From a virus (taxonomy: Duplodnaviria > Caudoviricetes), in IMG/VR virus record IMGVR_UViG_3300030329_003372, positions 1-61,732 of that record: 61,732 nt of DNA. One strand, given 5' to 3'. Below, piece after piece: positions 3,001 through 51,468 of this stretch (positions are counted from its first letter, which is position 1; each line of letters opens with the position of its first letter). The position numbers and the translations under genes were made by a program. Under the pieces are notes generated by a model that was not told where the DNA came from, searched no databases, and saw nothing but the letters and a program-made list of their open reading frames with translations.

Positions 3001-6000
3001 GGGTGGACACACCGTTGTTTTGGAAGCGGCAGCAAATTACACACTTGACCAACACTTCCCTGACCCATCTGAAGTAGGTGCGTATCAAATTGTCATCCAA
3101 CCCAATCTACACAGTTCACAACTGACAGGATTCCATGCAAATGGTGGCGCTACTGCTCTACCTGATGGGTCCGTCGAAGAACTCACCAATCAACAGGTTG
3201 CTTTAGTCATAGGATTGAAGCAAGCAGATGAGCATCGTGGTGCGGTAGCACTTGTTTTGGCCGAAGCAACGATGGCTGATGTGCGCGGCTGTGAGATATT
3301 CATCAACGAATTGATGATTGACCTTGACCCCGACCACGGTTCACAGTTCACCAACATACCACCTCTTCTCACCTACAACGCATTGGGTGTGCAAGGCACA
3401 GAATCACCTGCGTTTACACGTGCCAATTCTTTCCCGTATCATCCCGGTATGTTTGCTAATGCTACACCCGGTTTCACAACAAACATCCCGTGGTGGACGA
3501 TAATCCACAGCGACCCTACACACGCTAATGCTGTTGGATTTAGGCATCTTTCGGTGTATCGCTTTGATGATTACTATGAATTCTGTCGTGCCAACTTTGG
3601 TTCTATATCATCACAATTGACACTTGCGGGCTATCCAAGCATCTATCCTGATATTTACTCACCCATCTTAGAGAATACAAGTCTGAATCCAAGTGCAATT
3701 GTCAAAGAAGTAGACACCAACGGAAAGGCTTCGTGGGCTATTGATTCAAACTACACAGGTATTCGTGTTGATGATGCTCGCGCCTTTATGGAAGAGCCGT
3801 ATTTCGGGCAGGTGTTAGAATATACTGACAACAATGGTGTAAGACGAACAAAAACGTATACCTTCCGTTCGGGTGTGCAAGATGGCGTAAAGAACACACC
3901 AAGTGCATTCTCTATTGAATTGGTCACAGCGATGGATAAGGACGACCCCTTCTACGCGAACTTAGAAGCCGGTATGACCATTCGATTGTCACGTGCATAT
4001 GATTTCAAACCCGCAGGTTCGATTTTCACCGACGCTGATACAAGCATTATAACGCGCACTTTACCACAGACACTACAGGGTAGTCGAGATACAAACTCTC
4101 TCCACATGGCTGATGCCTTCCTATCACTTTGGCATCCTAACCTCGGTCGTTCACACACATTCTACAGCGATAGCAGCAGAACTTGGGGAACGCCCACAAG
4201 TGACCGAGCGGTTGATGCTAAACCATACAACATGATGCCCGAACACTTTGAAACAATTCATTATCACGATGCAACATACTACGCGAGCATGGGACCATTC
4301 GGATTCCATATCCAAACACCCGTGCCTTCATATCACGTAGAGGGTGATGCTTTGGTTTCAGGTGTTACAACAGCAGGGCATATACACACTATTACCCATA
4401 ATACGTTGAGTAGTGCCATAGCGGTTGGAACTTTCGTAACGATTAATGGCAAGGCTATAGGAACTGTATACGCCTCTACAACAGGTCAGATACAAATTGC
4501 ACAGCAAAACATCCCAACAATCAAGGTTGGTGATGCAATCTATATTCAGGGTGATGGAAGTGTTGGAGAGGCAAACGTCATTGATGGTATCACGGGTTTG
4601 ACACATCAGGGTGGACAGTTCGATGGTAGCGATGCACAATCAAAAACCATGCTCAACAAGTTTTGGCCTTCGGGTAGTCGCGGTGGCCCTCTTGTTAGCC
4701 GATTAGATGGTTACGCATACGTTTCAACAGCGTGGACATACCCACGACAATACGATTATGATACACCTGTTTGGTCTGACCAAGACGATGATAATTCATA
4801 CGCTGTTTCAAGTGGAATAACAAAGGGAAATTATGCTGTAAGTAGCACAAGACCACGACCTTTCGGTTATCGTTACGGTCTACGCCAACCATTCAATCGC
4901 CCTCAATGGTCGTTACATGGAGGACGAGGCTATATCGAAGCAAATGAAGGCGGTAGCAGTGGCACGACATTCCTACGAGGTTACAAACATGGGCCACTTG
5001 TTCAAGAAGAAACACAAACTTGGACATACACAGGTGGGTCAGGACTTTCAAACGCTACATATCCAAGCACCTACGTTGGAATCATGGAAAGAAAGACCAA
5101 CTTCAGTGGTATGCTTGCGGGTGATAAATCAGAATGGCAGGTAAGATACAGTGAGGGCCGACGCATGACACGGCCTTTCGGTTGCCCGATTCGCACACTA
5201 CGTAATACGAATAACGTGCCACGTGATTGGTGGGGTGACGGCGAAGGGAAGAATCTCTCAACCATAGACCAAATCGCAGGTTACTACATTGTAGATTGGT
5301 GGGGTAACACACGTGGTGAAGATGTTAGACGATACCCTGTTCGTGGGTTTGGTATCAGGCCCGCGTGGGACTGTGGAAATGCCTACGAATACGACCGAAC
5401 CAATGGTCGAACACCATTTGAGAGAATCTTGAACGACGAGAAACCAATTTTCAACACAAAGAATGTGGTGGCTTGGAATGGCACTACAGTCAGCGTTACA
5501 AGTAACTACACACTACCTCGTTTCGGCGGCACGATGAACGATGATAATAACAACAACACCGATAAGTTGGTTGATGTATTTGCTCCGACACACTCGATGC
5601 GTATCGGTGACATGGGTAACGGTCGTGGTGTGAGATACCCAACACAGTTCAATGAAGATGTGCTTACAGCGCTCGATGAACCTACACACGTGACAGGTCT
5701 TGTGCTGTCAAGCAACACAGCGGAACCACCTGTATCAGACGGACTCATCAGACCACGAAACGATGTTCTCCAAGCAGATGAGATTAAGCGTGGTATCAGC
5801 AACAAGTTGGATATTGCAGAAGATGGTTTGTTGAAGCCCGAAGCAGTTGTCAGCGACCGAATAGAAACCATTTCAGGCACATCACCACACAAGGACCCAA
5901 TCAGCCGTTCATCGCCACGTATCGGTATAGACGCCGAGAACGACCAAGCCACCGAAGCGAGTCTTGTTGCTATCAATACCGAAGCACACAGCCTACACAC

Positions 6001-10666: not shown

Positions 10667-10780
10667 TTATTCATCCTTCTCAAGTGTGAAAAACGAAAAC
10701 GCTGTGTGAACCAACCAAACAACAGTGACGGTGATGAACACACCCGCACACGCTTGGATGATGAAGTCAGTTATTGTCAT
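10667..10780 (-). CDS. Small membrane protein (37 aa)
   Basis: Manual translation MTITDFIIQACAGVFITVTVVWLVHTAFSFFTLEKDE; TGATG coupling to the thermosome gene. Confidence 0.5.
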   Translation of the reverse strand: MTITDFIIQACAGVFITVTVVWLVHTAFSFFTLEKDE

Positions 10781-12267
10781 CATTCCACACCCTTGCGTCC
10801 GATAATGTCGTCAATACGTAGGATAGCATTGGTCACCTCGGTTGCGCTTAGGACGGCTTGACGCACAAGTTCTGTGGGTTCGACCACACCGTGTTCTGCC
10901 ATGTCTGTGATACCACCCTCGTTCACATCAGGACCCATAGAGGTGTTACCGTTGAGGACAGCGTGACGCATAGCCAACACTGTGTCAAGCGGGTCATGCC
11001 CTGCGTTCTCCGCGATGGTAGCCGAGATAGACTCAAGCGCATCAGCGAATGCCTCAATCGCCATCTGTGCGCGGCCACCGATAGATGCCGCACGTGTGCG
11101 TAGGTGTGACGCCATAGCCACGTAAGCCGAACCACCGCCATATACCGCACCGCCGTTGTTGAGGACAAGGCTGACGACACCAAGTGCATCATCGAAGCCG
11201 CGCTCTACTTCATCGAGTGTGGTGGTTGTTGCGCCACGTAGGATGAGGGTGGACTCATCATCTTCTACGGACTTAATGAAGATGTAGTTTACATCATTGT
11301 ATTTTTCCAAAGACCACGGACGATTTACGGAATGGCTTACATCTTCAGGTGTTTGTGCTATGGATAATCCAAGAGCATTCGACAATGATTTCATACTACT
11401 TTCGGGAAGGCGGTGAACAACACGAATGTTCTTCTTTTCCAAAAACGCAACAACGCTTTCTGCTACACCATCACGAACAAACACAATCCCACCTTCAACC
11501 AAAACATCAGCAATCTTTTTTGCGAGCGTGAGTAGGTCATTCTTTCCTGAATCTTTGAACGATTGGTATGATTGGGCATCCAACTGAACCTGCACGTTGT
11601 CGTCACTCTTCACCATTTCCAACCCCGTATTGATAAGTAAACAGTCATCTGCACCAACTTGAATTTCAGCCCCGCCCACGAAATCCTTGTTCAGAACCAC
11701 ACCGTTGAACAGGTATGAGTCATCAATGGACCCGCCCGGTAGCGATAGGACGCGCACGTTGTCTGCGTTACCTGCCGCCGTAACTGCATCTACACACAGT
11801 TGTGATACTCTATCGAGCGACGTTTCAAGCGTCTTGCCTGTGATTGCCGTTCGTGCTACTGCGAGCGGTTCCGCTTCAGTTGTCAATTCCTTCAGGTATT
11901 CAGTCGCCATTTGTGACGCTTCGTGATACCCACGACAGATGACGTTGGGGTGTAGCCCCTTCTCAAACAACATCTCACTGTTGGCGAGCAGTTGCCCTGC
12001 AAGCACCACAGTTGAAGTCGTGCCGTCATAGCATAGACTCTCTTGCATCTTTGCCACTTCAACAATCATCTTGCCACCGGGATGGGCAACGTCTAACTCA
12101 CGTAGGATGGTTGCACCATCGTTAGTGACTATCACGTTCCCGCCTCCGTCTACGAGCATCTTGTCCATGCCCATAGGACCGAGGGTTGTCTTCACCGTAT
12201 CTACAATCTGCCGCGCCGCACGAATGTTGTGCGTTTGTGCGCTCTTCTTTCCTTCTCCTTCACTCAT
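10780..12267 (-). CDS. ths: Group II chaperonin (thermosome subunit)
   Basis: TLGPMGMDKM, TNDGATIL, DGTTS and ILRIDDII motifs. Confidence 0.95.
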   Translation of the reverse strand: MSEGEGKKSAQTHNIRAARQIVDTVKTTLGPMGMDKMLVDGGGNVIVTNDGATILRELDVAHPGGKMIVEVAKMQESLCYDGTTSTVVLAGQLLANSEMLFEKGLHPNVICRGYHEASQMATEYLKELTTEAEPLAVARTAITGKTLETSLDRVSQLCVDAVTAAGNADNVRVLSLPGGSIDDSYLFNGVVLNKDFVGGAEIQVGADDCLLINTGLEMVKSDDNVQVQLDAQSYQSFKDSGKNDLLTLAKKIADVLVEGGIVFVRDGVAESVVAFLEKKNIRVVHRLPESSMKSLSNALGLSIAQTPEDVSHSVNRPWSLEKYNDVNYIFIKSVEDDESTLILRGATTTTLDEVERGFDDALGVVSLVLNNGGAVYGGGSAYVAMASHLRTRAASIGGRAQMAIEAFADALESISATIAENAGHDPLDTVLAMRHAVLNGNTSMGPDVNEGGITDMAEHGVVEPTELVRQAVLSATEVTNAILRIDDIIGRKGVE

Positions 12268-17011: not shown

Positions 17012-17314
17012 TCACGCCACCTTTGCTAAATCTTGTCGTAGTTCATGATACAACTCTTCGATGTTCTCGTCGTCCACATAGCGTGGATTGATTGTGTAAG
17101 ACACAGTGTTCATCACGGGTTGTAGTGGGTCACCTGCTTCTAAATCATAGAACTCATCAAGTGTTGTTTGAATCCAAGTCTTTCTTTCAAACTTCATCTT
17201 TCCGAGTCGCATGAATCGAACAGTAACATTCCACGCAGGTGTCGAACCTCGATAGGCAATTTCGTCAGCGTAAGTTTGCAGTGCCTCTTTCAATAACAGT
17301 CTAATTGTATTCAT
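17012..17314 (-). CDS. Hypothetical protein with PIP-box-like QTTLDEFY
   Basis: ORF in the replication operon. Confidence 0.55.
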   Translation of the reverse strand: MNTIRLLLKEALQTYADEIAYRGSTPAWNVTVRFMRLGKMKFERKTWIQTTLDEFYDLEAGDPLQPVMNTVSYTINPRYVDDENIEELYHELRQDLAKVA

Positions 17315-18321
17315 TCATCTCCCTCCGGTAGAACGTATTCTTCCCCGGTGAACCGAGGACACACATCGGTGAAGGAACACCAATCGCATTTAGACCTTAT
17401 CGGCCCGCCTCTTGAAAAGAATGTAACCTCCTTCTTCGTAGGTGTTGGGAAGTCATTGTCTATGTGCGCTTGTATCAAGCGTTGCACAGACTTCAACACA
17501 CTCGATGGTGTCTGCGTAGCCGCCTTCACGGGTTCGTAGTAAATTGTAGGGCCATCACCATCCTCCATACCACCGCCGGGAAATTCCCAACCCCAATGTG
17601 TGATAGGTAGATACTCGTAGTGTGCGCTGTTCTCCAACATCATACGATAGAACTGCATTTCTTTTCGCATCGAAGTTCTCTTGCTCTTGCCTTTGTATTT
17701 ACCTGTCTTCAATTCCATGAGAGCGAAACCATCGCCCTCATCATTGGGGAAGATAGTATCAATGAAACCTCTCACGTGTATAGGAATACCCTCACCATCC
17801 ATATCAACAGTCATCCTTGCGTGTATGTTTGCTTCCACACCTGCGGGTTTCCACCCTTTACCTTGTGTGTAACGGTAGCGATTGAATTGCCAATCAACCC
17901 ACTGTCGAATCTGTTCTTCTTCTCCGAACTCATAAGGTGTGGGTGGGTTCGGCATTACATCATGCATGAGCGCACGTGCCTGTTCTATAGAGTTTGATGC
18001 CAACGCCATATCAATGGCTTCTAACTGTGAATCAACATTCGCCCAAAAGTATTCCACAGCATCGTGAACGTTGAGTCCTCGTATACCTGCCTCACCTGCA
18101 TCATCACGAAGGCGAGCGAAATGCTTGAGCCAATACTGCATCTTACACCATTCAAAGGTGTTCAATGATGACTTGGTAATACGAAGAATCTCTTCATCAT
18201 GGACGGCGGGATTCCAATCGTAACGACTTTGTTTGTATGAATCATACATCTCTTGGTCACGCGTGACCTCATAGTAATCATCAATAGTTGGTCGTGTATC
18301 ATCGTTCGGATTGAATCTCAT
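17311..18321 (-). CDS. PD-(D/E)xK Cas4/RecB-like exonuclease
   Basis: GFIDTI, ELKTG, QFY and C-terminal CDWCSFTDVC. Confidence 0.82.
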   Translation of the reverse strand: MRFNPNDDTRPTIDDYYEVTRDQEMYDSYKQSRYDWNPAVHDEEILRITKSSLNTFEWCKMQYWLKHFARLRDDAGEAGIRGLNVHDAVEYFWANVDSQLEAIDMALASNSIEQARALMHDVMPNPPTPYEFGEEEQIRQWVDWQFNRYRYTQGKGWKPAGVEANIHARMTVDMDGEGIPIHVRGFIDTIFPNDEGDGFALMELKTGKYKGKSKRTSMRKEMQFYRMMLENSAHYEYLPITHWGWEFPGGGMEDGDGPTIYYEPVKAATQTPSSVLKSVQRLIQAHIDNDFPTPTKKEVTFFSRGGPIRSKCDWCSFTDVCPRFTGEEYVLPEGDE

Positions 18322-26900: not shown

Positions 26901-26924
26901 TTCCACTATTGGTTTAAATATAAA
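26901..26924 (-). promoter_or_regulatory. Conserved viral TATA promoter, copy 3
   Basis: Match to consensus, upstream of rfcS. Confidence 0.8.
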
Positions 26925-27341: not shown

Positions 27342-28431
27342 CCAATTCCCCCATTAACATCTGATAGTCCACCAACTGACTCACATCACTTGCACCCATT
27401 TCCGATTCAACGCCATCGAATCGTAAGTGCCACTCATCATCAGGATTCCACAACAATACCACACGTGCTACAAGCGAGGCTTCAACTACGTGCCAAGACC
27501 GACCATAATTGTATCGGACACCGAAACGCCCGAACGCCCCTTCTAAGACAAAGGGCATCTCCGGCAGCACGATTGTGCAAACCTCAACAGTTGTGTCACC
27601 ATCGAGGAAGCCAATTTCCAATTCGTAGTAGGTGTCGTTTAGTTTACGCACACGTAGAATCTGACCGTAGAGGCTCGTTGTGCCACTCGTCATGAGATAA
27701 TAGTCATCATCATGTATGAGCAACGCACCACGTGGATGTAGTTGCATGAGTTGAACTGATTCGGGCCATGACATATCATCAAGGCTTTGTAGATTTTCAG
27801 CAATCCATGTGGGCTTTTCATGCTCAACATCCGAATCTTGATACAACAACGTATATTTTTCATCAATGAGTCCGTTTCTGTAACGAACAACCCGTTGTTT
27901 ACCGGGGAAGGCCAAACGTAGTGTTGATACATCTTCGACCAACCACCACTCTTTCGGTATTTTCGTCGTTGTTTCTTTCCACGGCTTGAGTCTGTGTTCG
28001 CCTAAGTCGTTTTGAACATCGTCACCCATCCACTTCTTCATTCGATTGACAACCGAACGCCAACGCTCACTGAAGGCCCATCGCCACACAAACTCGGCTT
28101 CGTCTGAATCGAGTGCATGGCACAATGACAGTAGTTTGAAATCGTCAGCCGAGAAGAAGGCCACGACCTGCTCAAGCGTCATGCCTGTAGATTCTGAATC
28201 AGATGATTCCCAAATGAGTGCTGTAACGATTGAGTTAGAACCGATACTTGCGTCGAGAACATCAGGATAGACACCACATTCAGCCGCCAATCGAAGACGA
28301 GCCATTTGTCGTGTCAAGGGACAACGAACAGGTCTGTTGAGAAAGTTCCACAGTTCGCGTGTTTCATCTTCAGATATGTCTGTGAGATTTGGCATCGCGC
28401 TGATACACGATACAGCGCGACTAATCTTCAC
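27334..28431 (-). CDS. Degenerate ATP-dependent DNA ligase-like protein
   Basis: Ligase-like layout (RYRNG resembling SRNG, GALLI resembling EGLMxK, C-terminal OB-like region) but no KxDG motif. Confidence 0.35.
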   Translation of the reverse strand: MKISRAVSCISAMPNLTDISEDETRELWNFLNRPVRCPLTRQMARLRLAAECGVYPDVLDASIGSNSIVTALIWESSDSESTGMTLEQVVAFFSADDFKLLSLCHALDSDEAEFVWRWAFSERWRSVVNRMKKWMGDDVQNDLGEHRLKPWKETTTKIPKEWWLVEDVSTLRLAFPGKQRVVRYRNGLIDEKYTLLYQDSDVEHEKPTWIAENLQSLDDMSWPESVQLMQLHPRGALLIHDDDYYLMTSGTTSLYGQILRVRKLNDTYYELEIGFLDGDTTVEVCTIVLPEMPFVLEGAFGRFGVRYNYGRSWHVVEASLVARVVLLWNPDDEWHLRFDGVESEMGASDVSQLVDYQMLMGELDE

Positions 28432-28790
28432 TCTTCCTCACCATTGAGGACGGACAAAACTTCGTTAATTTCATCTTGGAACAAATGTTTCCAAGTGTTT
28501 GGACGGGTGGCCGTGCAAAGGCCCCACAGTTCTTTTGTTTTGTTTTGAATTTTCAACTGTGTTACTGCTTTGTTCTTTGTATACTTCCCAACAAGGTGTA
28601 TACAATCAATCATGAGTGCGTGTGGTGAGCGTTGATTCGTCCACCGAGGATGTTCGGCAATCTTCTCTTTGAGTGTGTAGGCCGTGAGCCATTCCTTGAG
28701 AGTCATGCTTAATGCTGATGCTAACTCAAGTGTGCGGTCCTCTTTGTGTAATTCCGCTACACGTTTCATTCGTTCAGATGCTTCTGTCAA
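28428..28790 (-). CDS. Hypothetical protein
   Basis: ORF within the operon. Confidence 0.5.
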   Translation of the reverse strand: MTEASERMKRVAELHKEDRTLELASALSMTLKEWLTAYTLKEKIAEHPRWTNQRSPHALMIDCIHLVGKYTKNKAVTQLKIQNKTKELWGLCTATRPNTWKHLFQDEINEVLSVLNGEEE

Positions 28791-28931
28791 CTAACCACCC
28801 CTCAAGACCCATGCGCGATACATGGCGGTTTCTCTTGCGGCTTCATTACAGGCGTTGCACAATTCCTCATGGTCGCCCCATTCATCTTCGTGAACATCTT
28901 GGTCACATCCTTCACAATAGTGTTTAGTCAC
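28791..28931 (-). CDS. Zn-finger microprotein cassette (46 aa)
   Basis: MTKHYCEGC...LCNAC; GTG start inside the junction repeat. Confidence 0.6.
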   Translation of the reverse strand: MTKHYCEGCDQDVHEDEWGDHEELCNACNEAARETAMYRAWVLRGG

Positions 28932-29017
28932 GCCGTCACCCCCCAAAGTGATTTCATACAATCACAAGTTCCATCTTCCTTTGCTTCGTGGCCGCAAATC
29001 TCACATTCTTCACTCAC
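28928..29017 (-). CDS. Zn-finger microprotein cassette (29 aa)
   Basis: MSEECEICGHEAKEDGTCDCMKSLWGVTA. Confidence 0.6.
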   Translation of the reverse strand: MSEECEICGHEAKEDGTCDCMKSLWGVTA

Positions 29018-29037
29018 GCTGTCATCTCCTTCCATTC

Positions 29038-29388
29038 TCAACACCATCCCTCTTTTTCCAATTTATCTATGTCAAGCACTTCGGATTTCTCTTCGCACTT
29101 TTCACAACAATCACGACCATAAGCCATGTATGTGTGTTTTGGTTTTCTACCATTTATTATGGCTTGTTCTATTTTCGTTATATCTCTTAGAGTAAAGAAT
29201 CTACCCACATAGCCACCGCAACCGCAAAAATATGGTTTCTCACAAAAGGGACACGATGACATTTCTTCATCACATTTCATACACCAATGGACTTTCACTT
29301 TCTCAAGTTGCTCCCAACGGTCTTCGACCCACAAAAACTTCCCACATTCTGAAACTACGGGTTGTTTTCTACGTTTCCACCAACTCAC
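29038..29388 (-). CDS. Cys-rich Zn-finger cassette protein (116 aa)
   Basis: CMKC, CPFC, CGCG and CCEKC. Confidence 0.65.
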   Translation of the reverse strand: MSWWKRRKQPVVSECGKFLWVEDRWEQLEKVKVHWCMKCDEEMSSCPFCEKPYFCGCGGYVGRFFTLRDITKIEQAIINGRKPKHTYMAYGRDCCEKCEEKSEVLDIDKLEKEGWC

Positions 29389-29642
29389 GCCGTCACCTCC
29401 GGGGCGTAGCCGTTATCATGGTGTATACGAAATTCTACAATTTTACCACAGTGTATACACTTCGTCACAAATCTTTCTTGGTGACCGTAAGGCCAATTGA
29501 TTTGTGAACCGGGTAACGCCCTAAGAGCGTGTAGCGGGTTGCCTTCGCTGTCCACACAGTATTTTTCATCTCCGTAGCCTTCGTCCCTGAATGTGTGTTT
29601 TTTGTCAAACTCTTCTTCACCATATTCACTATACTTACTCAC
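29385..29642 (-). CDS. Zn-finger cassette protein (85 aa)
   Basis: MSKYSEYG...CIHCG...EVTA. Confidence 0.6.
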   Translation of the reverse strand: MSKYSEYGEEEFDKKHTFRDEGYGDEKYCVDSEGNPLHALRALPGSQINWPYGHQERFVTKCIHCGKIVEFRIHHDNGYAPEVTA

Positions 29643-29776
29643 GCCGTCACCTCCGCGCACATTTTGGCACAAGTCAAAGCATCCTTGTATTCGTAATAGA
29701 TTTGATTACAACCATGACAGCGATGATGCTGACAACCACATTCTGAAAGAATGTATTCTATTGCATACGCCCTCAC
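29639..29776 (-). CDS. Zn-finger microprotein cassette (45 aa)
   Basis: MRAYAIEYILSECGCQHHRCHGC...CAKMCAEVTA. Confidence 0.6.
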   Translation of the reverse strand: MRAYAIEYILSECGCQHHRCHGCNQIYYEYKDALTCAKMCAEVTA

Positions 29777-29943
29777 GCCGTCACCTCCACGCAATCGCAA
29801 TCATCCATATTCCAATCCTCACATATCTCACAGTATGTTGCGCGTTCAGATGCACGATATATCACACAACAATGACAAAGAGGGAAATGACCACTGATTT
29901 TCAACCATTGTGCTTGGCGTCCACAGCCTCTACATTTACTCAC
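29773..29943 (-). CDS. Zn-finger microprotein cassette (56 aa)
   Basis: MSKCRGC...CEIC...CDCVEVTA. Confidence 0.65.
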   Translation of the reverse strand: MSKCRGCGRQAQWLKISGHFPLCHCCVIYRASERATYCEICEDWNMDDCDCVEVTA

Positions 29944-30041
29944 GCCTTCACCTCCACGCATTTACATGGTTTTGTTGTAGGGTCATTTATATCCCATTCA
30001 TGGTCGCACTTGATACACCATCTCCCTGTCCATTCACTCAC
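29940..30041 (-). CDS. Zn-finger microprotein cassette (33 aa)
   Basis: MSEWTGRWCIKC...CKCVEVKA. Confidence 0.6.
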   Translation of the reverse strand: MSEWTGRWCIKCDHEWDINDPTTKPCKCVEVKA

Positions 30042-30181
30042 GCCGTCACCTCCACGCAATCACACTCTTGTGTGTTACAATCACAGGTCTGACACATAGG
30101 ACACCATGAATAGTCAGATACTGCTGTCCAACCACATTCGGGACACATTAGCGCATCAATTAGCATCACCCTTTTACTCAT
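30038..30181 (-). CDS. Zn-finger microprotein cassette (47 aa)
   Basis: MSKRV...CPEC...CPMC...CDCVEVTA. Confidence 0.65.
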   Translation of the reverse strand: MSKRVMLIDALMCPECGWTAVSDYSWCPMCQTCDCNTQECDCVEVTA

Positions 30182-30315
30182 GCCTTCACCTCCACGCCTA
30201 TTCGTTGCTTTCCACAACAAGTATCGTCTGTATTCTTCCAATCGAATAAACACACATGGAGTGTATTGCATACACTACACCAACGATAATCGCTATTCTG
30301 ACCACCATTCTTCAC
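30178..30315 (-). CDS. Zn-finger microprotein cassette (45 aa)
   Basis: MKNGG...CSVC...CCG...VEVKA. Confidence 0.6.
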   Translation of the reverse strand: MKNGGQNSDYRWCSVCNTLHVCLFDWKNTDDTCCGKQRIGVEVKA

Positions 30316-30518
30316 GCCGTCACCACCTCATCTAAGGAACCGACAAGTTGTATTCCACAATGACGACAAGTAACTGACAAGCGCATCTCAAACCTCTTAG
30401 TCTTTCCATGAATCACCCAATGTTCGCGACAAGGCCAACTTGAATCGAATACCCATTCACAATCCCCACCGACATTCTTCCCATCGGCATCTCCGGGGCA
30501 TTCGTAGTAATTGCTCAT
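30312..30518 (-). CDS. Zn-finger cassette protein (68 aa)
   Basis: CRHCG; ends EVVTA. Confidence 0.6.
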   Translation of the reverse strand: MSNYYECPGDADGKNVGGDCEWVFDSSWPCREHWVIHGKTKRFEMRLSVTCRHCGIQLVGSLDEVVTA

Positions 30519-30682
30519 TCCTTCACCCCCGGTGGGTTGGTATGTTCTAATTCACCGCTCATACACATACCACATCTTCTACAAACAATCCCAATCATAG
30601 GGGGTTCTAACCAATCAATCTCCCAATCATGATAATGGTCTACATTCATTGTGCTTTCGTCATCTATATCGCATCGCTTCAC
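30515..30682 (-). CDS. Zn-finger microprotein (55 aa)
   Basis: Manual translation: H-D-W...CRRCG. Confidence 0.55.
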   Translation of the reverse strand: MKRCDIDDESTMNVDHYHDWEIDWLEPPMIGIVCRRCGMCMSGELEHTNPPGVKE

Positions 30683-30927
30683 TTCTTCACCTCCGAGTGA
30701 CTATCACGCTCGCGTATCAGGCGAGCGCACTCTTCCAAAAACAATTGCTTCCATTTTGCTTGATACATATTTCCACCTTTCTCTCCATACTCATCTTGTG
30801 ATTCTATTTCTGTCCAACGATGAACGGGCCACGGTTTGTCGCTTGCATAGAATGGGTATCTTACCTCATAGCCATCAGCCACATGGTTGGCCCAATCTTC
30901 CTCCGCTTCCTTCACAGCCCTCTTCAT
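30679..30927 (-). CDS. Hypothetical protein (82 aa), leaderless first gene of the cassette operon
   Basis: ATG 29 nt below the start of TATTTAAA in promoter copy 4. Confidence 0.6.
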   Translation of the reverse strand: MKRAVKEAEEDWANHVADGYEVRYPFYASDKPWPVHRWTEIESQDEYGEKGGNMYQAKWKQLFLEECARLIRERDSHSEVKK

Positions 30928-30936
30928 CAATAACAA

Positions 30937-30960
30937 TTCTACTGTTGGTTTAAATATAAA
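30937..30960 (-). promoter_or_regulatory. Conserved viral TATA promoter, copy 4
   Basis: Perfect consensus. Confidence 0.85.
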
Positions 30961-30962
30961 AA

Positions 30963-31229
30963 TCAATTTTCGGCGTTCCGTTTCTTTTCTTCAACAGCAT
31001 CATCAATGTGTTCAAGCATCTCAACCAATGATGGAAGAAGCGAGCGCACTTGGTCGGGCGTCAATCGTAGACCTGACTTCGTGTGTTCGTAGCCATCATC
31101 CTTGCGACGCATGATGCGTAGGTCAATCATGTGACGCCCGCGAAATTCAACCCAAGCCAAGCGAGCGCGGCCCTTGCCGTCGTTCCACTTCCTCTCTTTG
31201 GAATCGTCAGCCCAATACTGCTTCTCCAC
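30963..31229 (-). CDS. PC4/p15-like ssDNA-binding protein
   Basis: EFRGRHMIDLRI...TKSGLRL PC4 signature. Confidence 0.75.
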   Translation of the reverse strand: MEKQYWADDSKERKWNDGKGRARLAWVEFRGRHMIDLRIMRRKDDGYEHTKSGLRLTPDQVRSLLPSLVEMLEHIDDAVEEKKRNAEN

Positions 31230-35800: not shown

Positions 35801-36108
35801 TCAATCCTCTCCTTGTATTCCTCGTAAGTTTCAATGTCACAATGACCACCATCGAAGATGGATTCAATGTAGGCATTCAACCGCTTGACTTCTGCGAGTA
35901 GTAGTGGTGCGTCTGCTATGAGTTGTGCATTAACATCTGTGCATCCACATTTACTCGGTTGGGTATCTATGATGTGGAGGCGTTGCCCTTCTGCCCTTCC
36001 TTTCCAAACCAAATCCCCTATCGCAATATGCTTTTTGTTGATTTTTATTTTTCCCCTAAGTTCCCACGGTCCCGGTATGTGTCCTTCGTATTTGTCTGTG
36101 TCAATCAT
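35797..36108 (-). CDS. MIDTDKY-family paralogue 6
   Basis: MIDTDKYEGHIPGPW...AQLIADAPLLLAEVKRL. Confidence 0.7.
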   Translation of the reverse strand: MIDTDKYEGHIPGPWELRGKIKINKKHIAIGDLVWKGRAEGQRLHIIDTQPSKCGCTDVNAQLIADAPLLLAEVKRLNAYIESIFDGGHCDIETYEEYKERIE

Positions 36109-36448
36109 TCTTTCGCCCCCAAACCCTGTCCTGTATTCCATCTGTCCATTCTTTCCACCGTTCTTCAAAGTCATTTTTTCCATAATGTTGGAAGAAGAAG
36201 TCCTTGCTTCTCGGTGTTACAATTTGAACTTGAATAATCTTACGCAATCGCTTGACTTCTGCAAGGAGAAGTGGTGCGTCTGCTATGAGTTGTGCGTCTG
36301 CTTCCTTATCTATTGAATAGGAAAGCCTCCGGTGTCTTTCTGTGATAATGTATTTGTTACGACCCGGCCCTTTCAGTAATATCGAATCTTTTTTGGGCCA
36401 TCCCCACGGCCCCGGCGTGTGTCCTTCGTATTTGTCTGTGTCAATCAT
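36101..36448 (-). CDS. MIDTDKY-family paralogue 5
   Basis: HTPGPW...DAQLIADAPLLLAEVKRL. Confidence 0.7.
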   Translation of the reverse strand: MIDTDKYEGHTPGPWGWPKKDSILLKGPGRNKYIITERHRRLSYSIDKEADAQLIADAPLLLAEVKRLRKIIQVQIVTPRSKDFFFQHYGKNDFEERWKEWTDGIQDRVWGRKND

Positions 36449-36729
36449 TCATCCACCTCCGGTAGTATTCCAAGATAATCGCACCATTCCAGCAACACAT
36501 CTTCGTGATAAATGCCTAACCAATCTTCAAGTCTGAAGTTTTGTTCAAATAACTTAAGCACTTCACGCAACCGCTTGACTTCTGCGAGTAGGTCAAGAGC
36601 ATTACCATAAAACTCATACGCATATTGTATTGCTAATTCTTTGTGCATATCACCACACGCAATATCATTACAGAACTCCTTGTTCATTCTATGCTCTAAT
36701 TTCTCTTCGTATTTGTCTGTGTCAATCAT
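36445..36729 (-). CDS. MIDTDKY-family paralogue 4
   Basis: MIDTDKYE...DLLAEVKRL. Confidence 0.7.
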   Translation of the reverse strand: MIDTDKYEEKLEHRMNKEFCNDIACGDMHKELAIQYAYEFYGNALDLLAEVKRLREVLKLFEQNFRLEDWLGIYHEDVLLEWCDYLGILPEVDE

Positions 36730-37070
36730 TCATCATCACTCTCTCTTAGTTGGGAACACATATAACAAACCCAACCCCATTGGGTATGATGAGGGTGTTG
36801 CATTATCTGTTCTTCAATAAGCCAATTCTTACACCCATCACATTCAACCAATAGGTTAGCCTCTAACACATCACGCAACCTCTTCACTTCTTCACGCAAC
36901 CGCTTGTAGTCTGCGAGCAGTAGTGGTGCGTCTGCTATGAGTTGTGCGTCTGCAAGTTTGGGTGGAATTAACTCAATGTCACCCGGTAACACCACTGCGT
37001 GATAAGCAGCCGCCGAGTATTGTTCCCACGGCCCTCTCGTATGTCCTTCGTATTTGTCTGTGTCAATCAT
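36726..37070 (-). CDS. MIDTDKY-family paralogue 3 with C-terminal Zn finger
   Basis: HTRGPW...ADAPLLL...CDGC...CYMC. Confidence 0.7.
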   Translation of the reverse strand: MIDTDKYEGHTRGPWEQYSAAAYHAVVLPGDIELIPPKLADAQLIADAPLLLADYKRLREEVKRLRDVLEANLLVECDGCKNWLIEEQIMQHPHHTQWGWVCYMCSQLRESDDE

Positions 37071-37420
37071 TCTTCTTCATCTCCTTCTATGTAGTCCTCG
37101 TAGTCCATCATCGCTGAATCGCTTTGTCCGGCAAGGGAATGTATAATTTTCTTCGCTCTCACAAGTTGCTCGCGCATTCGCTTAATCTCTTCAAGCAGAA
37201 GTGGTGCGTCTGCTATGAGTTGTGCATTGGCTTCAGTTGAAGCGACTACACCAACATCATGACAGAAATCTTCGTGTCGGTATTCTTCACCGAAGTCACG
37301 GATATTGTCCCAATCGTCTGACATTTCTTTATCAAACCAATAGATTTTCCAACTTGAAAAGTAACCCCTAAGTTTCCACGGCCCTTGTGTGTGTCCTTCG
37401 TATTTGTCTGTGTCAATCAT
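37067..37420 (-). CDS. MIDTDKY-family paralogue 2
   Basis: HTQGPW...ANAQLIADAPLLL. Confidence 0.7.
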   Translation of the reverse strand: MIDTDKYEGHTQGPWKLRGYFSSWKIYWFDKEMSDDWDNIRDFGEEYRHEDFCHDVGVVASTEANAQLIADAPLLLEEIKRMREQLVRAKKIIHSLAGQSDSAMMDYEDYIEGDEEE

Positions 37421-37635
37421 TCTTCTTCATCTCCTTCATGTAAAACATAACGTCGTATATCATCAATCAAGAATTTCAACTTAACCGTATCTGACATACG
37501 TGTGCTACCCTCAAGGAAGGTCAAAGCGTTCTTGATAATACCACGTATCTTCTTGACTTCCTCAACTGCATTCAGATAGAAAATCATTTCTTGCTTTGAG
37601 CAATACCCTCCCTTTACATTGTCTGTGTCAATCAT
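37417..37635 (-). CDS. MIDTD-family paralogue 1 (72 aa)
   Basis: MIDTDN start at an ATGA overlap. Confidence 0.6.
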   Translation of the reverse strand: MIDTDNVKGGYCSKQEMIFYLNAVEEVKKIRGIIKNALTFLEGSTRMSDTVKLKFLIDDIRRYVLHEGDEEE

Positions 37636-48562: not shown

Positions 48563-48835
48563 TCAGGGCCACATCTGTATGAGGTATGTCCCATCAGGTT
48601 GGTAGTGCTTCAACTTCAACATGGCATCATCATCCCATGCTTGGAGGAATGCGATAAGGGCAGGTGTGAATCCTTCGACATACAACGTGACCCAATCGGG
48701 GTCGTTATCATAGAGCCATTGAGAGCATACTGCTTTCATCCAACTGTAGTCATCCATCTTGTCTTCAGGTATACCTTCAGGGAACACGATGTGTTCAGCA
48801 GGTGATGGGTGTCGCCCGAACAATGCTATGTTCAT
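48563..48835 (-). CDS. Hypothetical protein
   Basis: Coupled to the helicase gene. Confidence 0.5.
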   Translation of the reverse strand: MNIALFGRHPSPAEHIVFPEGIPEDKMDDYSWMKAVCSQWLYDNDPDWVTLYVEGFTPALIAFLQAWDDDAMLKLKHYQPDGTYLIQMWP

Positions 48836-51468
48836 TCAATCACTTCCTTTGGTTTCTTCTTGCTTACCTTCTTACCGAAGTCAGAAGGTAGGTCGCCGCT
48901 CTCTATCATACTCTCAATGAGAGCAGCCACAATACCTGCTCGCTCATCCAAGTCACCACCATCAAGGACAGCCTTCACTACCTTGCGCTTCTCTTCAATC
49001 ACTCGGTCGAACTTCTCATCAATGGTTCCCTTGACTGATATGTATGTGGCCCAAACTGTTTCAGCATCTTGACCAATGCGGTTAATGCGGTCCTCGGCTT
49101 GCTCTTCCCAACCGGGAACCCACTCACGTTCTACGAAGAGAACAGTGTCGGCTGCTGTGAGAGTGATGCCTTCTTTGGCAGCGAGGGTTGAACAACATAG
49201 TATGTCGAGCGCACCTGATTGGAACTGCTCAACTCTTTGTTGTCTGACTTGGGCATCAGTCCCACCCACAATACCTGCGATGCTGTAGTCTTTCTTGAGT
49301 GCGTTCATGAGAGCAGTGCCAACATCCTTGTGGTGGAAGAACACAACCAATGGTGTGTCAGGGTTCTGTTCTTTGTATTCCTTGACCCATGCTACTGTTG
49401 AGTTCACCTTGAGTAAACCACATTGGTGTCGAAGGTCGGTCAGCATATTGAGGACGAACCCTGCGGGCATGGAACCTCTTGACTGATGCTGTTGATACTC
49501 GGTCATCCATGCGTCATGGCATTCCTTGTAGGCACGAAGGTCCGCTGCTGTTGGGTCCACTGTGTGTATGCTACGAATCTTGTCAGGTAGTTCATCCATC
49601 ACTTCCTTCTTGAGTCGGCGTATACAGAAGTCGCGTGTTCTCTCATGTAGTTCATCAGTGTTGGTTGCTTTATCGTATTGCCAAGCATACCGACCTCGCC
49701 CAATGTGAACTTGTTGTCCACCACAGTATCGCACACCATAGGTATGGAAGGATGGGTATTCAGCAGGGCGTAGTAGGTTGAGCGTAGTGAAGAACTCGGA
49801 AGGTCGGTTGGTAATCGCAGTGCCTGTCAAACAGATGACTGAATCAGTTGCTTCAGCAATAGTCAGTGATGCTTGTGTGCGCTGCGCCTTCTTGTTCTTC
49901 AAGTAGTGTGACTCATCAAAGACACTGATGTTAAAACCATACTTGAGTAGGTTGGGTAGTTGCTTCTTCATCAAGTCGTAGTTGATAACTACGAAGTCTT
50001 GCCCCGCAGGTATGTCGGTCTTGCCATTCTTCACAGCGAAGGTCGAGGCTTGTGGTAACCACGTTCGTAGTTCCTTAACCCAATTGTATTTGACTGAAGC
50101 AGGGCATACAATGAGAGCGGGCCACTTGTCTGTGTTCAATGCACAGTAACCAATGGCTTGGATGGTCTTACCCACACCCATGTCATCACCGATAAGACAA
50201 CGACCACCTGATAGTTCAGCGAACTGAACACCAACGTATTGGAATGGGTATAGTTCAAAGCCTTCAGGGAAGGACTCATCGAATGTCTTCTTCATGTTCT
50301 CTATCTGTTCCTCATTGTTGAGAGAAGCAGCACCACTGATGGCAATCCTTTCGGCTCGCTCTTGTAAGTAAGTGTCCACTTGTTCGATGGACTGAAGACT
50401 TGACTTGAGTTTGTTGAGGACAGCGAGAACTTCTTTCGACGGTTGCCCGTCGAGGAAACGTTCCAAGCGTGTCATGAAGTCACCGGCTTGGGCGATGCTA
50501 AACGTCCACACCTTGCGGTCGGCATTCCACTTGCGCCCATCAGTTCCTTTGATGAGTCCCATGATTTGTCCTCGGTCACTTGGGTTCGCAAGGTATGGTG
50601 TCTTGACTACAAGCATGGTTCCCTTCTCAAGTGTGACAGAAGTATCATCCTTACTTGCGGGCGCAGTTGTCTGTTCTATAGCAACCTCGGCCAACTCCTT
50701 CAGGTGGTCATCCACATACCAACCGAACTTCTCTATGGCATTGATGACAGCCACGATGGTAGCCTTGTCATTCTTGATAGTCCACAACTTGAGTGAGCCA
50801 TCGAACTTGGAACCGGGGAAGGGTGCTGCACCCTTGATGACATTATTGAGGTCAGGGTTGTATGTGAAGACAAGACCAATGCGTTCTGTCTTGGTTGTCT
50901 TGCCCCACTTGTTTGTCCACACATCCTGAACTATCTTACTCTTGACTGTCTTGAGTCTTATCTCGGCTGCCACCCAATCGGCTGCCTTCTGTGCTGCTGA
51001 CTTCTTCAACTCTTCAACTTGCGCTTCAGTGCAACCAAGTTCAATCAACTTCGCAAGAGCATTCTCTTCGATGGTGTGGTCGCCCTTCTTGTATGCTTGA
51101 GCCAATGAGTGTTCGGCTGATGATACTGCTGCCTTGTGCTTGGCTTGCTTGCGTTGAACTTCCTTCGCTCGCTCGCCTTGTATCTTCATCTGTTCAAGTG
51201 ACTTACCTACATCTTTGGCTAAGTCAGTAAGTCCTAACTCTCGTAGGATGCGAGGCAACTGCGTGTTGCGATACTTGTGAAAGCGAGTTGCTGCTTCAAG
51301 GAACTCATGTTCCTCAATGGTTTCTTGCTGTGCTATCTGTGAGAAGAAGGGCCAATCAGGTTTGTTCGGTCCTTGCCCATCGTCACAGTTAGGCGCACCA
51401 TAGGAAACAAGTTTCCCAATGATGCGATGCACTACTGCCGGGTCAATTGGTGTTGTTGTCATCATCAT
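48832..51468 (-). CDS. SNF2-family (HARP/SMARCAL1-like) helicase
   Basis: GDDMGVGKT, FDESH, LTGT and QAEDRINRIGQ; two N-terminal HARP-like W motifs. Confidence 0.9.
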   Translation of the reverse strand: MMMTTTPIDPAVVHRIIGKLVSYGAPNCDDGQGPNKPDWPFFSQIAQQETIEEHEFLEAATRFHKYRNTQLPRILRELGLTDLAKDVGKSLEQMKIQGERAKEVQRKQAKHKAAVSSAEHSLAQAYKKGDHTIEENALAKLIELGCTEAQVEELKKSAAQKAADWVAAEIRLKTVKSKIVQDVWTNKWGKTTKTERIGLVFTYNPDLNNVIKGAAPFPGSKFDGSLKLWTIKNDKATIVAVINAIEKFGWYVDDHLKELAEVAIEQTTAPASKDDTSVTLEKGTMLVVKTPYLANPSDRGQIMGLIKGTDGRKWNADRKVWTFSIAQAGDFMTRLERFLDGQPSKEVLAVLNKLKSSLQSIEQVDTYLQERAERIAISGAASLNNEEQIENMKKTFDESFPEGFELYPFQYVGVQFAELSGGRCLIGDDMGVGKTIQAIGYCALNTDKWPALIVCPASVKYNWVKELRTWLPQASTFAVKNGKTDIPAGQDFVVINYDLMKKQLPNLLKYGFNISVFDESHYLKNKKAQRTQASLTIAEATDSVICLTGTAITNRPSEFFTTLNLLRPAEYPSFHTYGVRYCGGQQVHIGRGRYAWQYDKATNTDELHERTRDFCIRRLKKEVMDELPDKIRSIHTVDPTAADLRAYKECHDAWMTEYQQHQSRGSMPAGFVLNMLTDLRHQCGLLKVNSTVAWVKEYKEQNPDTPLVVFFHHKDVGTALMNALKKDYSIAGIVGGTDAQVRQQRVEQFQSGALDILCCSTLAAKEGITLTAADTVLFVEREWVPGWEEQAEDRINRIGQDAETVWATYISVKGTIDEKFDRVIEEKRKVVKAVLDGGDLDERAGIVAALIESMIESGDLPSDFGKKVSKKKPKEVIE

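Follow-up and report, generated by a model that had tools for sequence, protein, structure and literature searches.

Eleven small genes of 29-116 aa, most of them Cys-rich, lie on the minus strand at 28791-30682 of the analysed stretch (61,732 b in full, hereafter the window). In a magrovirus-like tailed virus, they probably form a hypervariable array of accessory genes in which one short repeated junction serves both translation and DNA exchange. All eleven sit under a single promoter-like element. Deletions, swaps and replacements of cassettes were observed between close relatives, and most turnover falls within the array.

The whole window was searched for copies of the 18-mer GGAGGTGAMGGCRTGAGT, which gave 13 matches at ≤3 mismatches vs 0.10 expected (0 of 100 shuffles reached 13). 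Ten of these lie inside the array, between 28926 and 30530 (five exact, one with 1 mismatch, two with 2, two with 3), and the three outside (14503, 46780, 52639) have 3 mismatches each; at ≤2 mismatches the junction is absent from the rest of the window and is thus array-confined. By our own reading of the sequence, the A/B boundary (30677-30694) is an eleventh copy, with 4 mismatches. An earlier sequence-only reading had described about 11 cassettes joined by nine copies of a repeat that is at once Shine-Dalgarno (SD), stop and start. The arrangement is real, and its number of copies was roughly right, the count being the ten in the array at ≤3 mismatches plus the A/B copy. The 25 identical bp that it saw in two copies (29772-29796 and 30037-30061) were found again, and its remark that the ORF track mis-starts several genes holds for E, F, G, H, I and L, all of which the mechanical list stretches upstream into the preceding gene. 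Nor is the 18-mer the general SD of this genome; other coupled genes of the window use GGTGAGGAAGA-RTGA or other stereotyped sequences.

Table 1 Features of the array and its surroundings. Positions are those of the window; aa, amino acids; Cys, number of cysteines; terminal residues are those directly before the stop codon.
Feature	Position	Strand	Description
Promoter-like repeat	30934..30966	-	TATA-like TTTATATT at 30953-30960, about 26 nt before gene A ATG
Gene A	30679..30927	-	about 83 aa, 1 Cys; opens the operon; ends SEVKK in 4-mismatch junction
Cassette B	30515..30682	-	55 aa, 4 Cys; GTG start overlaps TGA of A; no Pfam match
Cassette C	30312..30518	-	68 aa, 5 Cys; ATGA overlap; ends EVVTA
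Cassette D	30178..30315	-	45 aa, 5 Cys; ends VEVKA
Cassette E	30038..30181	-	47 aa, 8 Cys; ends CVEVTA
Cassette F	29940..30041	-	33 aa, 4 Cys; ends CVEVKA
E+F present/absent segment	29944..30181	-	238 b; bounded by D/E and F/G junctions sharing 16 identical bases
Cassette G	29773..29943	-	56 aa, 9 Cys; ends CVEVTA
Cassette H	29639..29776	-	45 aa, 6 Cys; ends AEVTA
Cassette I	29385..29642	-	85 aa, 3 Cys; ends PEVTA
Cassette J	29038..29388	-	116 aa, 11 Cys; stop 7 codons before decayed junction
Cassette K	28928..29035	-	35 aa (ATG 29035) or 29 aa (GTG 29017), 4 Cys; ends GVTA
Cassette L	28791..28931	-	46 aa, 4 Cys; last cassette, without EVTA tail, then TAG-TTG and gene M
Gene M	28428..28790	-	120 aa, not Cys-rich; conserved downstream flank
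Junction copies (18-mer spans), first six of 11	30677-30694 (A/B), 30513-30530, 30310-30327, 30176-30193, 30036-30053, 29938-29955	-	
Junction copies (18-mer spans), last five of 11	29771-29788, 29637-29654, 29383-29400, 29012-29029 (displaced), 28926-28943	-	

Read in the frame of the upstream gene, the junction is G GAG GTG ACG GCR TGA (EVTA or EVKA, then stop), and the next gene starts at the RTG within RTGA. This overlap is present at 10 of the 11 boundaries, with GGAGGTGA or a variant of it 4 nt upstream, which is the anatomy of coupled cistrons; for the RNA runs checked for the stretch no holder is listed, and translational coupling is therefore deduced from the anatomy. A second TGA lies within GGTGA, by which two frames are closed and the third is opened. 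At J/K the junction is displaced, with J ending 7 codons early and its frame running on as EWKEMTA to a stop in a 2-mismatch copy. At the junction no shared RNA fold was found (three of four junction 70-mers gave z about 0), nor an inverted repeat or attC-like imperfect palindrome; it is a direct repeat. On our own reading, the codons around its stop offer no obvious slippery site for ribosomal frameshifting into polyproteins.

The promoter-like repeat ahead of gene A recurs as a 33-mer in 3 copies at ≤3 mismatches, and its 17-nt core, TTTATATTTAAACCAAC, in 13 minus-strand copies at ≤2 mismatches. The core copy at 30960 is the fourth from 14857 in plus coordinates, in agreement with the earlier placing of the array under 'promoter copy 4'; the next copy downstream is at 26924 and none lies within the array. 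We infer that the repeat is an archaeal promoter heading the array operon. Its depth in run X1 was 138 vs about 50, and it stands at several places on the same contigs; this multi-copy repeat is also the sole joint in the contigs that 'goes back'. Gene A is probably leaderless from its ATG at 30927; the ATG-started frame is kept in the relative L176, but the upstream TTG frame is not. Homologues of gene A occur in L175, L176, L025 and L107, in L025 at the downstream end of the array. Gene M, with homologues in 13 loci, ends in GEEE and stop, the other common junction type of the genome.

The record encodes PolB, a clamp loader, a thermosome-type chaperonin and an SNF2 helicase, which the available text of PMC5434244 gives as traits of group-A magroviruses, marine viruses of about 100 kb. 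The best cultured matches of PolB are haloarchaeal tailed viruses. The virus thus looks like a group-A magrovirus, an assignment made from gene traits rather than from a phylogeny or from capsid, portal or terminase genes, and its hosts are probably marine Poseidoniales archaea. A cellular-genome scan for the 20-mer form of the junction did not find an archaeal host genome; 77 of its 79 stretches were single copies serving as ordinary junctions in unrelated bacteria, and the other two were multi-copy contigs (L277, L267) whose cassettes match viral ones and which are probably of viral origin, binned with bacterial genomes.

Cassettes B-L hold 3-11 Cys each. No Pfam family was found below E 0.03 for nine of the eleven (F and K were left out of the scan), PHROGs gave the clamp loader only among 10 neighbours, and blastn of the region against a cultured-phage collection gave no match; compared with one another, in a tiny database, the window cassettes showed no convincing similarity. 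Given these two results, from Pfam and from mutual comparison, the label 'Zn finger' of the sequence-only reading stands for Cys patterns alone; these are present in the window cassettes, but the label does not extend to the family, in which two or more Cx1-4C motifs are present in only 74 of the 211 unique cassettes. Many cassettes are probably zinc-binding. The 211 fall into 136 clusters and are mostly unrelated. They are real protein genes under purifying selection, with dN/dS 0.17, pN < pS in 58 of 59 pairs and a body pS of 0.27. A homologue search of about 5.8 billion proteins gave cassette J only two other relatives, at 59 % and 53 % identity; its best score in the Atlas comparison was 0.86, below the lead threshold, for a model of pLDDT 0.40.

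Exchange at the junction is seen in contig L175, which is 99.98-100 % identical to the window and lacks only E and F, the crossover lying inside the 16 shared junction bases. A contig of run X3 likewise joins 29943 to 30182, a skip of 238 b with 16 shared letters. Forms with and without E+F coexist in run X1 (depth 19.4 on the E-F path, 34.3 on the bypass, 50-55 on the flanks) and in run X2 (25, 39.3 and 63, respectively), the two depths summing to that of the flanks, and X3 holds the deletion; since X3 and X4 cover the stretch in part, their gaps were not interpreted. The core of cassette H (29650-29775) has an identical copy on an X3 contig with unlike flanks, with loose ends at 29650 and 29775.

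In L176 the DNA flanks are 85-96 % identical and collinear with the window, and only E (85 % aa identity) and L are held in common; the other nine of the eleven window cassettes are missing and four other cassettes are found, one of them a 192-aa homologue of pyrimidine-dimer glycosylase. L006 and L007, with a left flank 73 % identical, carry two cassettes of 98-99 % identity in opposite order; L052, L164 and L037 show block replacements that end on junctions; and the cassette MSEY... occurs in four different neighbourhoods. Among segments of ≥80 % similarity, 174 of 303 right ends fell on a junction (-3..+12 of the junction end, in both partners), as did 105 of 272 left ends, where chance would give about 5-7 % for one random position (about 5 % for the right ends); these ends are not independent events, and any conserved junction stretches a segment to its far edge. 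The sequence-only reading had taken the junction as a plug-in connector by which cassettes are added, deleted or reordered, and the variants of the relatives support it: content varies (L176), order varies (L006/L007), and breakpoints lie in the repeat (the L175 joint, the X3 skip and the right ends of segments). Within the fetched loci, cassette L has homologues in L176 and L107, cassette B recurs in L175 only, and cassette F has a homologue in none; apart from E and L, the window cassettes are without homologues in fetched relatives, and their mobility is thus deduced from the family.

The motif is not required for exchange, since inserts also differ between L176 and L177/L178/L181 at the M/anchor boundary, where it is missing. 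Among the assembled contigs, in which rare forms or circles would go unseen, there was no circle-type joint inside the array. The sequence-only reading had proposed a recombinase-free library of small effectors, possibly anti-defence or host-takeover proteins; integrase, resolvase and Rad51/RadA families had no match in the 61.7-kb record (about 54 % complete), and PF00589 (IntI-type tyrosine recombinase) had 0 matches in it, with the control matched in 14 of 14 genomes.

The 20-mer form was found in 70 viral-contig stretches, with up to 7 copies each; the longest arrays have 11 consecutive junctions (L005/L075), and arrays are found even where identity of the 365-aa flank protein is down to about 31 %. 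The family consensus, of about 20 nt, is NGC GTG GAG GTG ACG GCR TGA. Over 225 contexts its most conserved positions are the SD core and RTGA, and conservation drops to background outside -19..0; the set was gathered at ≤4 mismatches, by which the apparent conservation inside the 20-mer is inflated.

What keeps this sequence so constant admits several explanations. It could be conserved only as an optimal SD/stop/start signal, the joints lying there since only gene-boundary recombinants survive; the prominence of the SD core and RTGA fits this, as do the other stereotyped coupling junctions of the same genome, the insertions at the motif-less M/anchor boundary, and the single ordinary junctions of the 77 bacterial genome stretches. 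We hold this to be unlikely, since the spacer CGGC (87-100 %) and the 5' GCGT (68-76 %) are conserved though outside the SD, where no pairing with the usual 16S 3' end would be expected, the array alone carries the motif instead of all coupled genes doing so, and the E+F joint falls within an identical stretch. A constraint beyond the needs of SD, stop and start would also be expected of a binding or cleavage site for a factor encoded by virus or host, be it an RNA-processing enzyme, a dedicated site-specific recombinase or a translational repressor, or of a stoperator-like site on the DNA, and unexplained start-associated repeats of cluster K mycobacteriophages provide a precedent in the available text of PMC3203893 (Pope et al. 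2011). Such a site is decidedly unlikely: no integrase or resolvase family was matched in the window (from a record about 54 % complete), the junction 70-mers share no fold, and no candidate factor was identified.

Selection might instead act on the C-terminal peptide (V)EVTA, as a degradation, sorting or packaging tag with the nucleotide repeat as by-product, and 75 of the 211 unique cassettes do end exactly in VEVTA, most others in close variants. The conservation is, however, at the nucleotide rather than the peptide level. The residue before VEVTA varies as C, G or S through one shared NGC codon, and over 225 contexts conservation reaches 96-100 % at the third positions -15, -12 and -9 vs 73-75 % at -17 and -16, i.e. 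synonymous positions are more conserved than first and second ones; of 256 contexts, 8 have an upstream gene that stops at the inner TGA, with ..WR or ..GR as its end and no tag, and last cassettes of arrays, here L, are untagged as well. On the grounds of the NGC codon, the synonymous conservation and the untagged genes, a peptide tag was rejected as main cause and is regarded as very unlikely. Least credible of all is a tandemly duplicated paralogue family whose junction was kept by common descent, although CxC-VEV(T/K)A ends are common to E, F and G, two copies share the 25 bp, and a true tandem array of paralogues, 31-44 % identical and all starting MIDTD, is indeed present in this virus at 36101-37635. 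This explanation was rejected because the cassette bodies are unrelated (no significant similarity, in the tiny database), the 136 clusters include none that occurs twice in any array listed, lengths spread from 29 to 192 aa with the glycosylase homologue included, and the junction barely varies beside the body pS of 0.27.

We return to an array whose junction probably has two roles. One TATA-type promoter would drive gene A and then the eleven unrelated micro-genes. In the mRNA, the 8-nt SD would stand 4 nt before an RTG overlapping the upstream TGA, and ribosomes ending one micro-gene could initiate on the next. In the DNA, the junction is the only sequence common to otherwise unrelated cassettes; through recombination over short homologies, or slippage in replication, between non-allelic copies, cassettes would be deleted within a genome, while between co-infecting relatives they would be inserted, replaced or reordered. 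Deletions, swaps and replacements are observed outcomes, their enzymology being presumed, and each product would retain stop, SD and start. More tentatively, and with doubt prevailing, the 20 nt may be a selected 'universal adaptor', the exchange standard for a family of abundant ocean archaeal viruses: since the junction closes two frames, opens the third and carries the ribosome site, the micro-gene of any relative could be inserted into any array by short-homology recombination and expressed at once. It would then be a recombinase-independent counterpart of the integron, maintaining hundreds of host-directed micro-proteins as a shared pool.

Among known systems, the closest analogue is formed by the PeSL (promoter-early stem-loop) cassettes of T4-type phages, reportedly treated by Comeau et al. 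2014. In the available text of PMC2839356 (Arbiol et al. 2010), the repeated motif flanks ORFans in hypervariable regions, indels and replacements are bounded by it, and recombination between copies is proposed; it is about 100 bp, non-coding, with a sigma-70-like promoter and a terminator hairpin, and mini-circles were shown. Shared with the present case are motif-flanked ORFans in a hypervariable region (here 11 junctions, and arrays in many relatives), differences between close relatives bounded by the motif, and expression signals kept in every shuffled product. The junction differs in being ~20 nt long, lying mostly inside the upstream coding sequence, consisting of SD, stop and start and having no hairpin; each PeSL cassette is its own transcription unit, whereas one promoter-like repeat stands upstream of the whole array here, and the host domain here is probably archaeal.

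Integrons consist of promoterless cassettes, an IntI tyrosine recombinase, attI/attC sites and the Pc promoter. The array resembles them as a row of unrelated swappable genes behind one upstream promoter-like element, with content and order differing between close relatives, but no tyrosine recombinase (in the record, about 54 % complete) and no attC-like palindromes were found; the joint is a 16-20-nt direct repeat in coding sequence, and exchange looks homology-driven, not site-specific. Coupled overlapping cistrons (ATGA/GTGA) have a four-base stop/start overlap behind an SD in the end of the upstream gene, as seen here with RTGA; ordinary pairs, in contrast, are not known to carry an identical 20-nt junction across dozens of unrelated genes and in viruses whose flanking proteins have only 31 % identity. 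The start-associated sequences (SAS) of cluster K mycobacteriophages, as far as the available text of PMC3203893 goes, have a 13-bp consensus, GGGATAGGAGCCC, 3-7 bp before starts, are asymmetric with an SD core, precede non-structural genes of different families, sometimes include the upstream stop, and are conserved beyond what rRNA pairing explains. They are thus SD-containing repeats in the same kind of position just before starts, but of another sequence, dispersed over half a genome, without tandem array and, in that text, without a proposed role in cassette exchange. The literature searched on magroviruses and on junction-linked gene cassettes yielded no description of the junction (supplementary gene tables may annotate some genes); the available text of PMC5434244 does not mention zinc, promoter, Shine, repeat or small proteins, and that of PMC11706807 mentions terminal repeats only.

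The array would give viruses a sequence-defined route for trading accessory genes without a dedicated recombinase, and bears on the old question of whether mosaicism arises at conserved linkers or by joining at random, with selection acting afterwards. It adds more than 200 unique small proteins, under purifying selection, for viruses of a highly abundant surface-ocean archaeal group, for which we know of essentially no accessory functions. In gene annotation, the junction reliably marks micro-genes of 29-60 aa that standard gene finders overlook or start at the wrong place; it is also a compact natural design for coupled synthetic operons. With both E+F forms side by side in one sample, ocean metagenome time series allow the process to be tracked directly.

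The junction is a sequence-standardised connector that links unrelated micro-genes under selection. In the window it joins gene A and eleven cassettes (B-L), followed by flank gene M. A four-base stop/start overlap (RTGA) is found at 10 of the 11 boundaries from A/B through K/L, with a GGAGGTGA-type Shine-Dalgarno (SD) 4 nt upstream of each overlap; the exception is J/K, where the TGA of J lies 7 codons early and the frame runs on as EWKEMTA* into a 2-mismatch junction copy (29017-29040, minus strand), which looks like a premature stop ahead of an older junction. The 18-mer form of the junction has 13 matches in the 61,732-b window at ≤3 mismatches (0.10 expected): 10 inside the array (five exact, one with one mismatch, two with two, two with three) and three outside, each with three mismatches. 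The 25 identical bp at 29772-29796 and 30037-30061, noted in the sequence-only reading, were recovered in a sequence check, and the junction-joined array of small genes described there is confirmed. Protein comparison of B-L gave no convincing mutual similarity.

Simple SD bias, under which the same 18-mer would recur at all junctions, does not account for this pattern: the junction is not the general ribosome site of the genome, because other coupled pairs in the window end in different stereotyped sequences, either GGTGAGGAAGA-RTGA, with ..GEEE* tails, or GGAGATGAAGAAGA-ATGATTGAC. The latter joins a separate tandem array, in which four of five members are paralogues (31-44 % identical) and which is a true duplication array, unlike the Cys-rich cassette array. 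A fold test gave no shared fold of the junction RNA.

Coordinates of features in the window (strand in the third column)
Feature	Position	Strand	Remarks
Promoter-like element, ~25 nt (TTTATATTTAAACCAAC + AGTAGAAT)	54358, 53063, 51505, 47332, 44974, 41016, 38569, 35291, 30960, 26924, 19776, 14857 (and 6456)	-	ahead of gene blocks; one copy heads array, at start of 30966-28428 reading
Gene A	ATG 30927	-	~83 aa; no SD
Cassettes B-L	between A and M	-	55, 68, 45, 47, 33, 56, 45, 85, 116, 29/35, 46 aa; 3-11 Cys each
Gene M	ends array stretch, to 28428	-	120 aa; conserved
Anchor gene	after M	-	365 aa; used for relative search
GGTGAGGAAGA-RTGA	12267, 19400, 22881, 28431, 39874, 40517, 47024 and others	-	dispersed over larger genes
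GGAGATGAAGAAGA-ATGATTGAC tandem array	36101-37635	-	five genes, all starting MIDTD
Thermosome-type chaperonin	10780-12267	-	PF00118, E 8e-124
SNF2 helicase	48832-51468	-	part of group-A magrovirus-like gene set
PD-(D/E)XK nuclease	17311-18321	-	part of group-A magrovirus-like gene set
Open frame	2-7576	+	≥2,524 aa; runs off window start

At ≤2 mismatches, the 17-nt core TTTATATTTAAACCAAC has 13 minus-strand copies in the window. One of them, at 30960, stands at the head of the array, and going downstream the following copy is at 26924, so that one putative unit would run from A through B-L and M to the second gene after M. The element, with a TATA-like box and a conserved downstream part, suggests a virus-specific archaeal-type promoter; the box ends ~26 nt ahead of the ATG of A, and the array promoter may be read as archaeal-type, with A as a leaderless first gene. 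A PC4-like protein (PF02229, E 3.2e-8) is encoded directly upstream of the array promoter (30963-31229, minus strand); in three related loci (L052, L164, L037) an 83-aa gene resembling it, by eye only, lies directly downstream of the array instead.

Among viral contigs, the 18-mer is present in at least 119 stretches (among the matches listed, 109 with one copy, seven with two, three with three) and the longer, 20-mer form GCGTGGAGGTGACGGCRTGA, read from the 18-mer loci, in 70 stretches, where it reaches 7 copies; with 4 mismatches allowed, up to 11 consecutive junctions are found (L005/L075). Even viruses with as little as ~31 % identity to the window in the 365-aa flank protein carry such arrays. 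In cellular genomes, 77 of the 79 stretches with the 20-mer have a single copy. The other two are contigs with several exact junction copies, 5 in L277 (1-1259) and 2 in L267 (1700-2320). Both come from metagenome-assembled genomes classed as bacterial (labels Maricaulis and Opitutales), but since homologues of their cassettes occur in viral loci, they probably represent viral contigs placed in bacterial bins.

Loci holding two or more junctions yielded 272 junction-started cassettes, 211 of them unique (median length 53 aa; exact VEVTA end in 75). At least two Cx1-4C motifs occur in 74 of the 211, and at most one Cys in 61; the Zn-finger character ascribed to the array by the sequence-only reading therefore does not hold for the family, whose arrays are made up of micro-genes of many kinds rather than of zinc-finger genes specifically. 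L176 carries a 192-aa cassette that is a pyrimidine-dimer DNA glycosylase homologue (PF03013, E 1.7e-7), and J of the window has only two relatives among ~5.8 billion proteins. That the cassettes are real genes is shown by a pooled dN/dS of 0.17 over 59 homologous equal-length pairs (junction codons removed; pairs not independent), with pN < pS in 58 of the 59.

Over 225 unique junction contexts, gathered with a 4-mismatch limit that qualifies the conservation figures, conservation is limited to positions -19 to 0 relative to the TGA end, with background on either side. Third codon positions (-15, -12, -9) are 96-100 % conserved, compared with 73-75 % at -17 and -16, which are codon positions one and two of Val; the CGGC spacer that separates SD from start reaches 87-100 %. 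The codon preceding Val is NGC (Cys, Gly or Ser), and synonymous divergence in cassette bodies is 0.27. Selection for the VEVTA peptide encoded by the junction end is thus the less fitting explanation, and the pattern in this 4-mismatch set fits DNA/RNA sequence constraint or homogenisation. GGTGA in the junction holds a third-frame TGA, at which the upstream gene stops in 8 of 256 unique contexts, ending ..WR* or ..GR* (first in L049); the RTGA stop and this inner TGA thus close two frames while the third is opened. On the mRNA, the junction may act by ribosome termination-reinitiation coupling.

Deletion, replacement and reordering of cassettes were observed with joints in the junction, including polymorphism within one sample. 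L175, a relative 99.98 % (36500-30173) and 100 % (29959-26367) identical to the window, is without 238 b holding E and F; its joint consists of the end of D, the shared GCGTGGAGGTGAAGGC, and the GTG and body of G, which places the crossover within a 16-base stretch that is identical in the D/E and F/G junctions. Typical assembly word sizes exceed an exact repeat of that length. The E-F and bypass forms occur together at ~36:64 in two public sequencing runs, both possibly sources of the window DNA (contig depths in X1: flanks 54.8 / 50.2, 282-b E-F piece 19.4, 44-b bypass piece 34.3; in X2: flanks 63, 282-b E-F piece 25, 44-b bypass piece 39.3). A contig of run X3, which belongs to a different study, connects 29943 with 30182, and 16 letters at the joint can be assigned to either side. 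On a further X3 contig (record 16), the cassette H core (29650-29775) occurs without differences between flanks unlike the window, with loose ends at both H junctions; on both sides these flanks have a different type of junction (reverse complement about GGAGGGCGAGTGA), which hints that cassettes may move between arrays using different connectors.

Among relatives, L176 has flanks collinear with those of the window (85-96 % DNA identity) and the array A'-X1-E'-X2-X3-X4-L'-M' (X1-X4 here being cassettes), in which only E and L are shared; for nine of the eleven window cassettes, the fetched loci other than L175 gave no homologue. L006 and L007 (87.7 % identical over 18.9 kb; left flank only 72.7 %) hold two cassettes, 98.8 % and 97.7 % identical, in opposite order, with the ends of the similarity segments lying on junctions. 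L052, L164 and L037 (L052/L164 93.4 %, L037/L164 94.8 %, L052/L037 segments 91-95 % identical) differ by cassette blocks whose ends are junction ends; the MSEY... cassette has four different neighbour pairs (L006, L007, L052, L037). Over 74 non-redundant loci and segments of ≥80 % identity, right ends fell, in both partners, at -3 to +12 relative to a junction end in 174 of 303 cases (5.1 % for one random position) and left ends at -30 to -8 in 105 of 272 (7.0 %), counts of non-independent events that the conserved junction draws to its own edge. The use of ATG or GTG at a junction shows no link to the cassette that follows, as expected if crossovers lie inside the junction. Cassette content and order thus vary in relatives with breakpoints at the repeat, which supports the proposal of the sequence-only reading that recombination between connector copies can add, delete or reorder cassettes. 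At the M/anchor boundary, which is without the motif and carries the GGTGAGGAAGA-RTGA copy at 28431, a 120-aa gene is inserted in L176 and another gene in L177, L178 and L181; the motif thus favours exchange, yet is dispensable for it. The underlying process may be short-homology recombination or slippage, insertions would come from exchange between co-infecting relatives, and selection, if any, might act on exchangeability as such. No recombinase was found in the ~54 %-complete record (CheckV).

Of the systems described so far, the PeSL cassette of T4-type phages comes closest, since its source (PMC2839356) likewise has ORFans that are shuffled together with their expression signals in a repeat-mediated way; mini-circles were shown there, and the repeat is a ~100 bp promoter-terminator, unlike the translational junction here. 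The start-associated sequences of cluster K are described (PMC3203893, in part) as a conserved SD-containing repeat ahead of starts, but are dispersed. Integrons share a one-promoter cassette row with the array, but every defining part is different. Literature on the present junction was not found in the published main texts searched. The system is repeat-mediated cassette shuffling with a coding, putatively translation-coupling connector in archaeal-type ocean viruses.

The runs holding the stretch are labelled marine metagenome, and no RNA run is among those listed. The window encodes a family-B DNA polymerase (PolB) and a clamp loader, both reported in all magroviruses in the relevant part of Philosof et al. 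2017 (PMC5434244), which also places the thermosome subunit in groups A and D and the SNF2 helicase in group A; by gene content, the window is group-A magrovirus-like. Among cultured viruses, it is haloarchaeal tailed viruses that give the best full-length PolB matches, at ~24 % identity.
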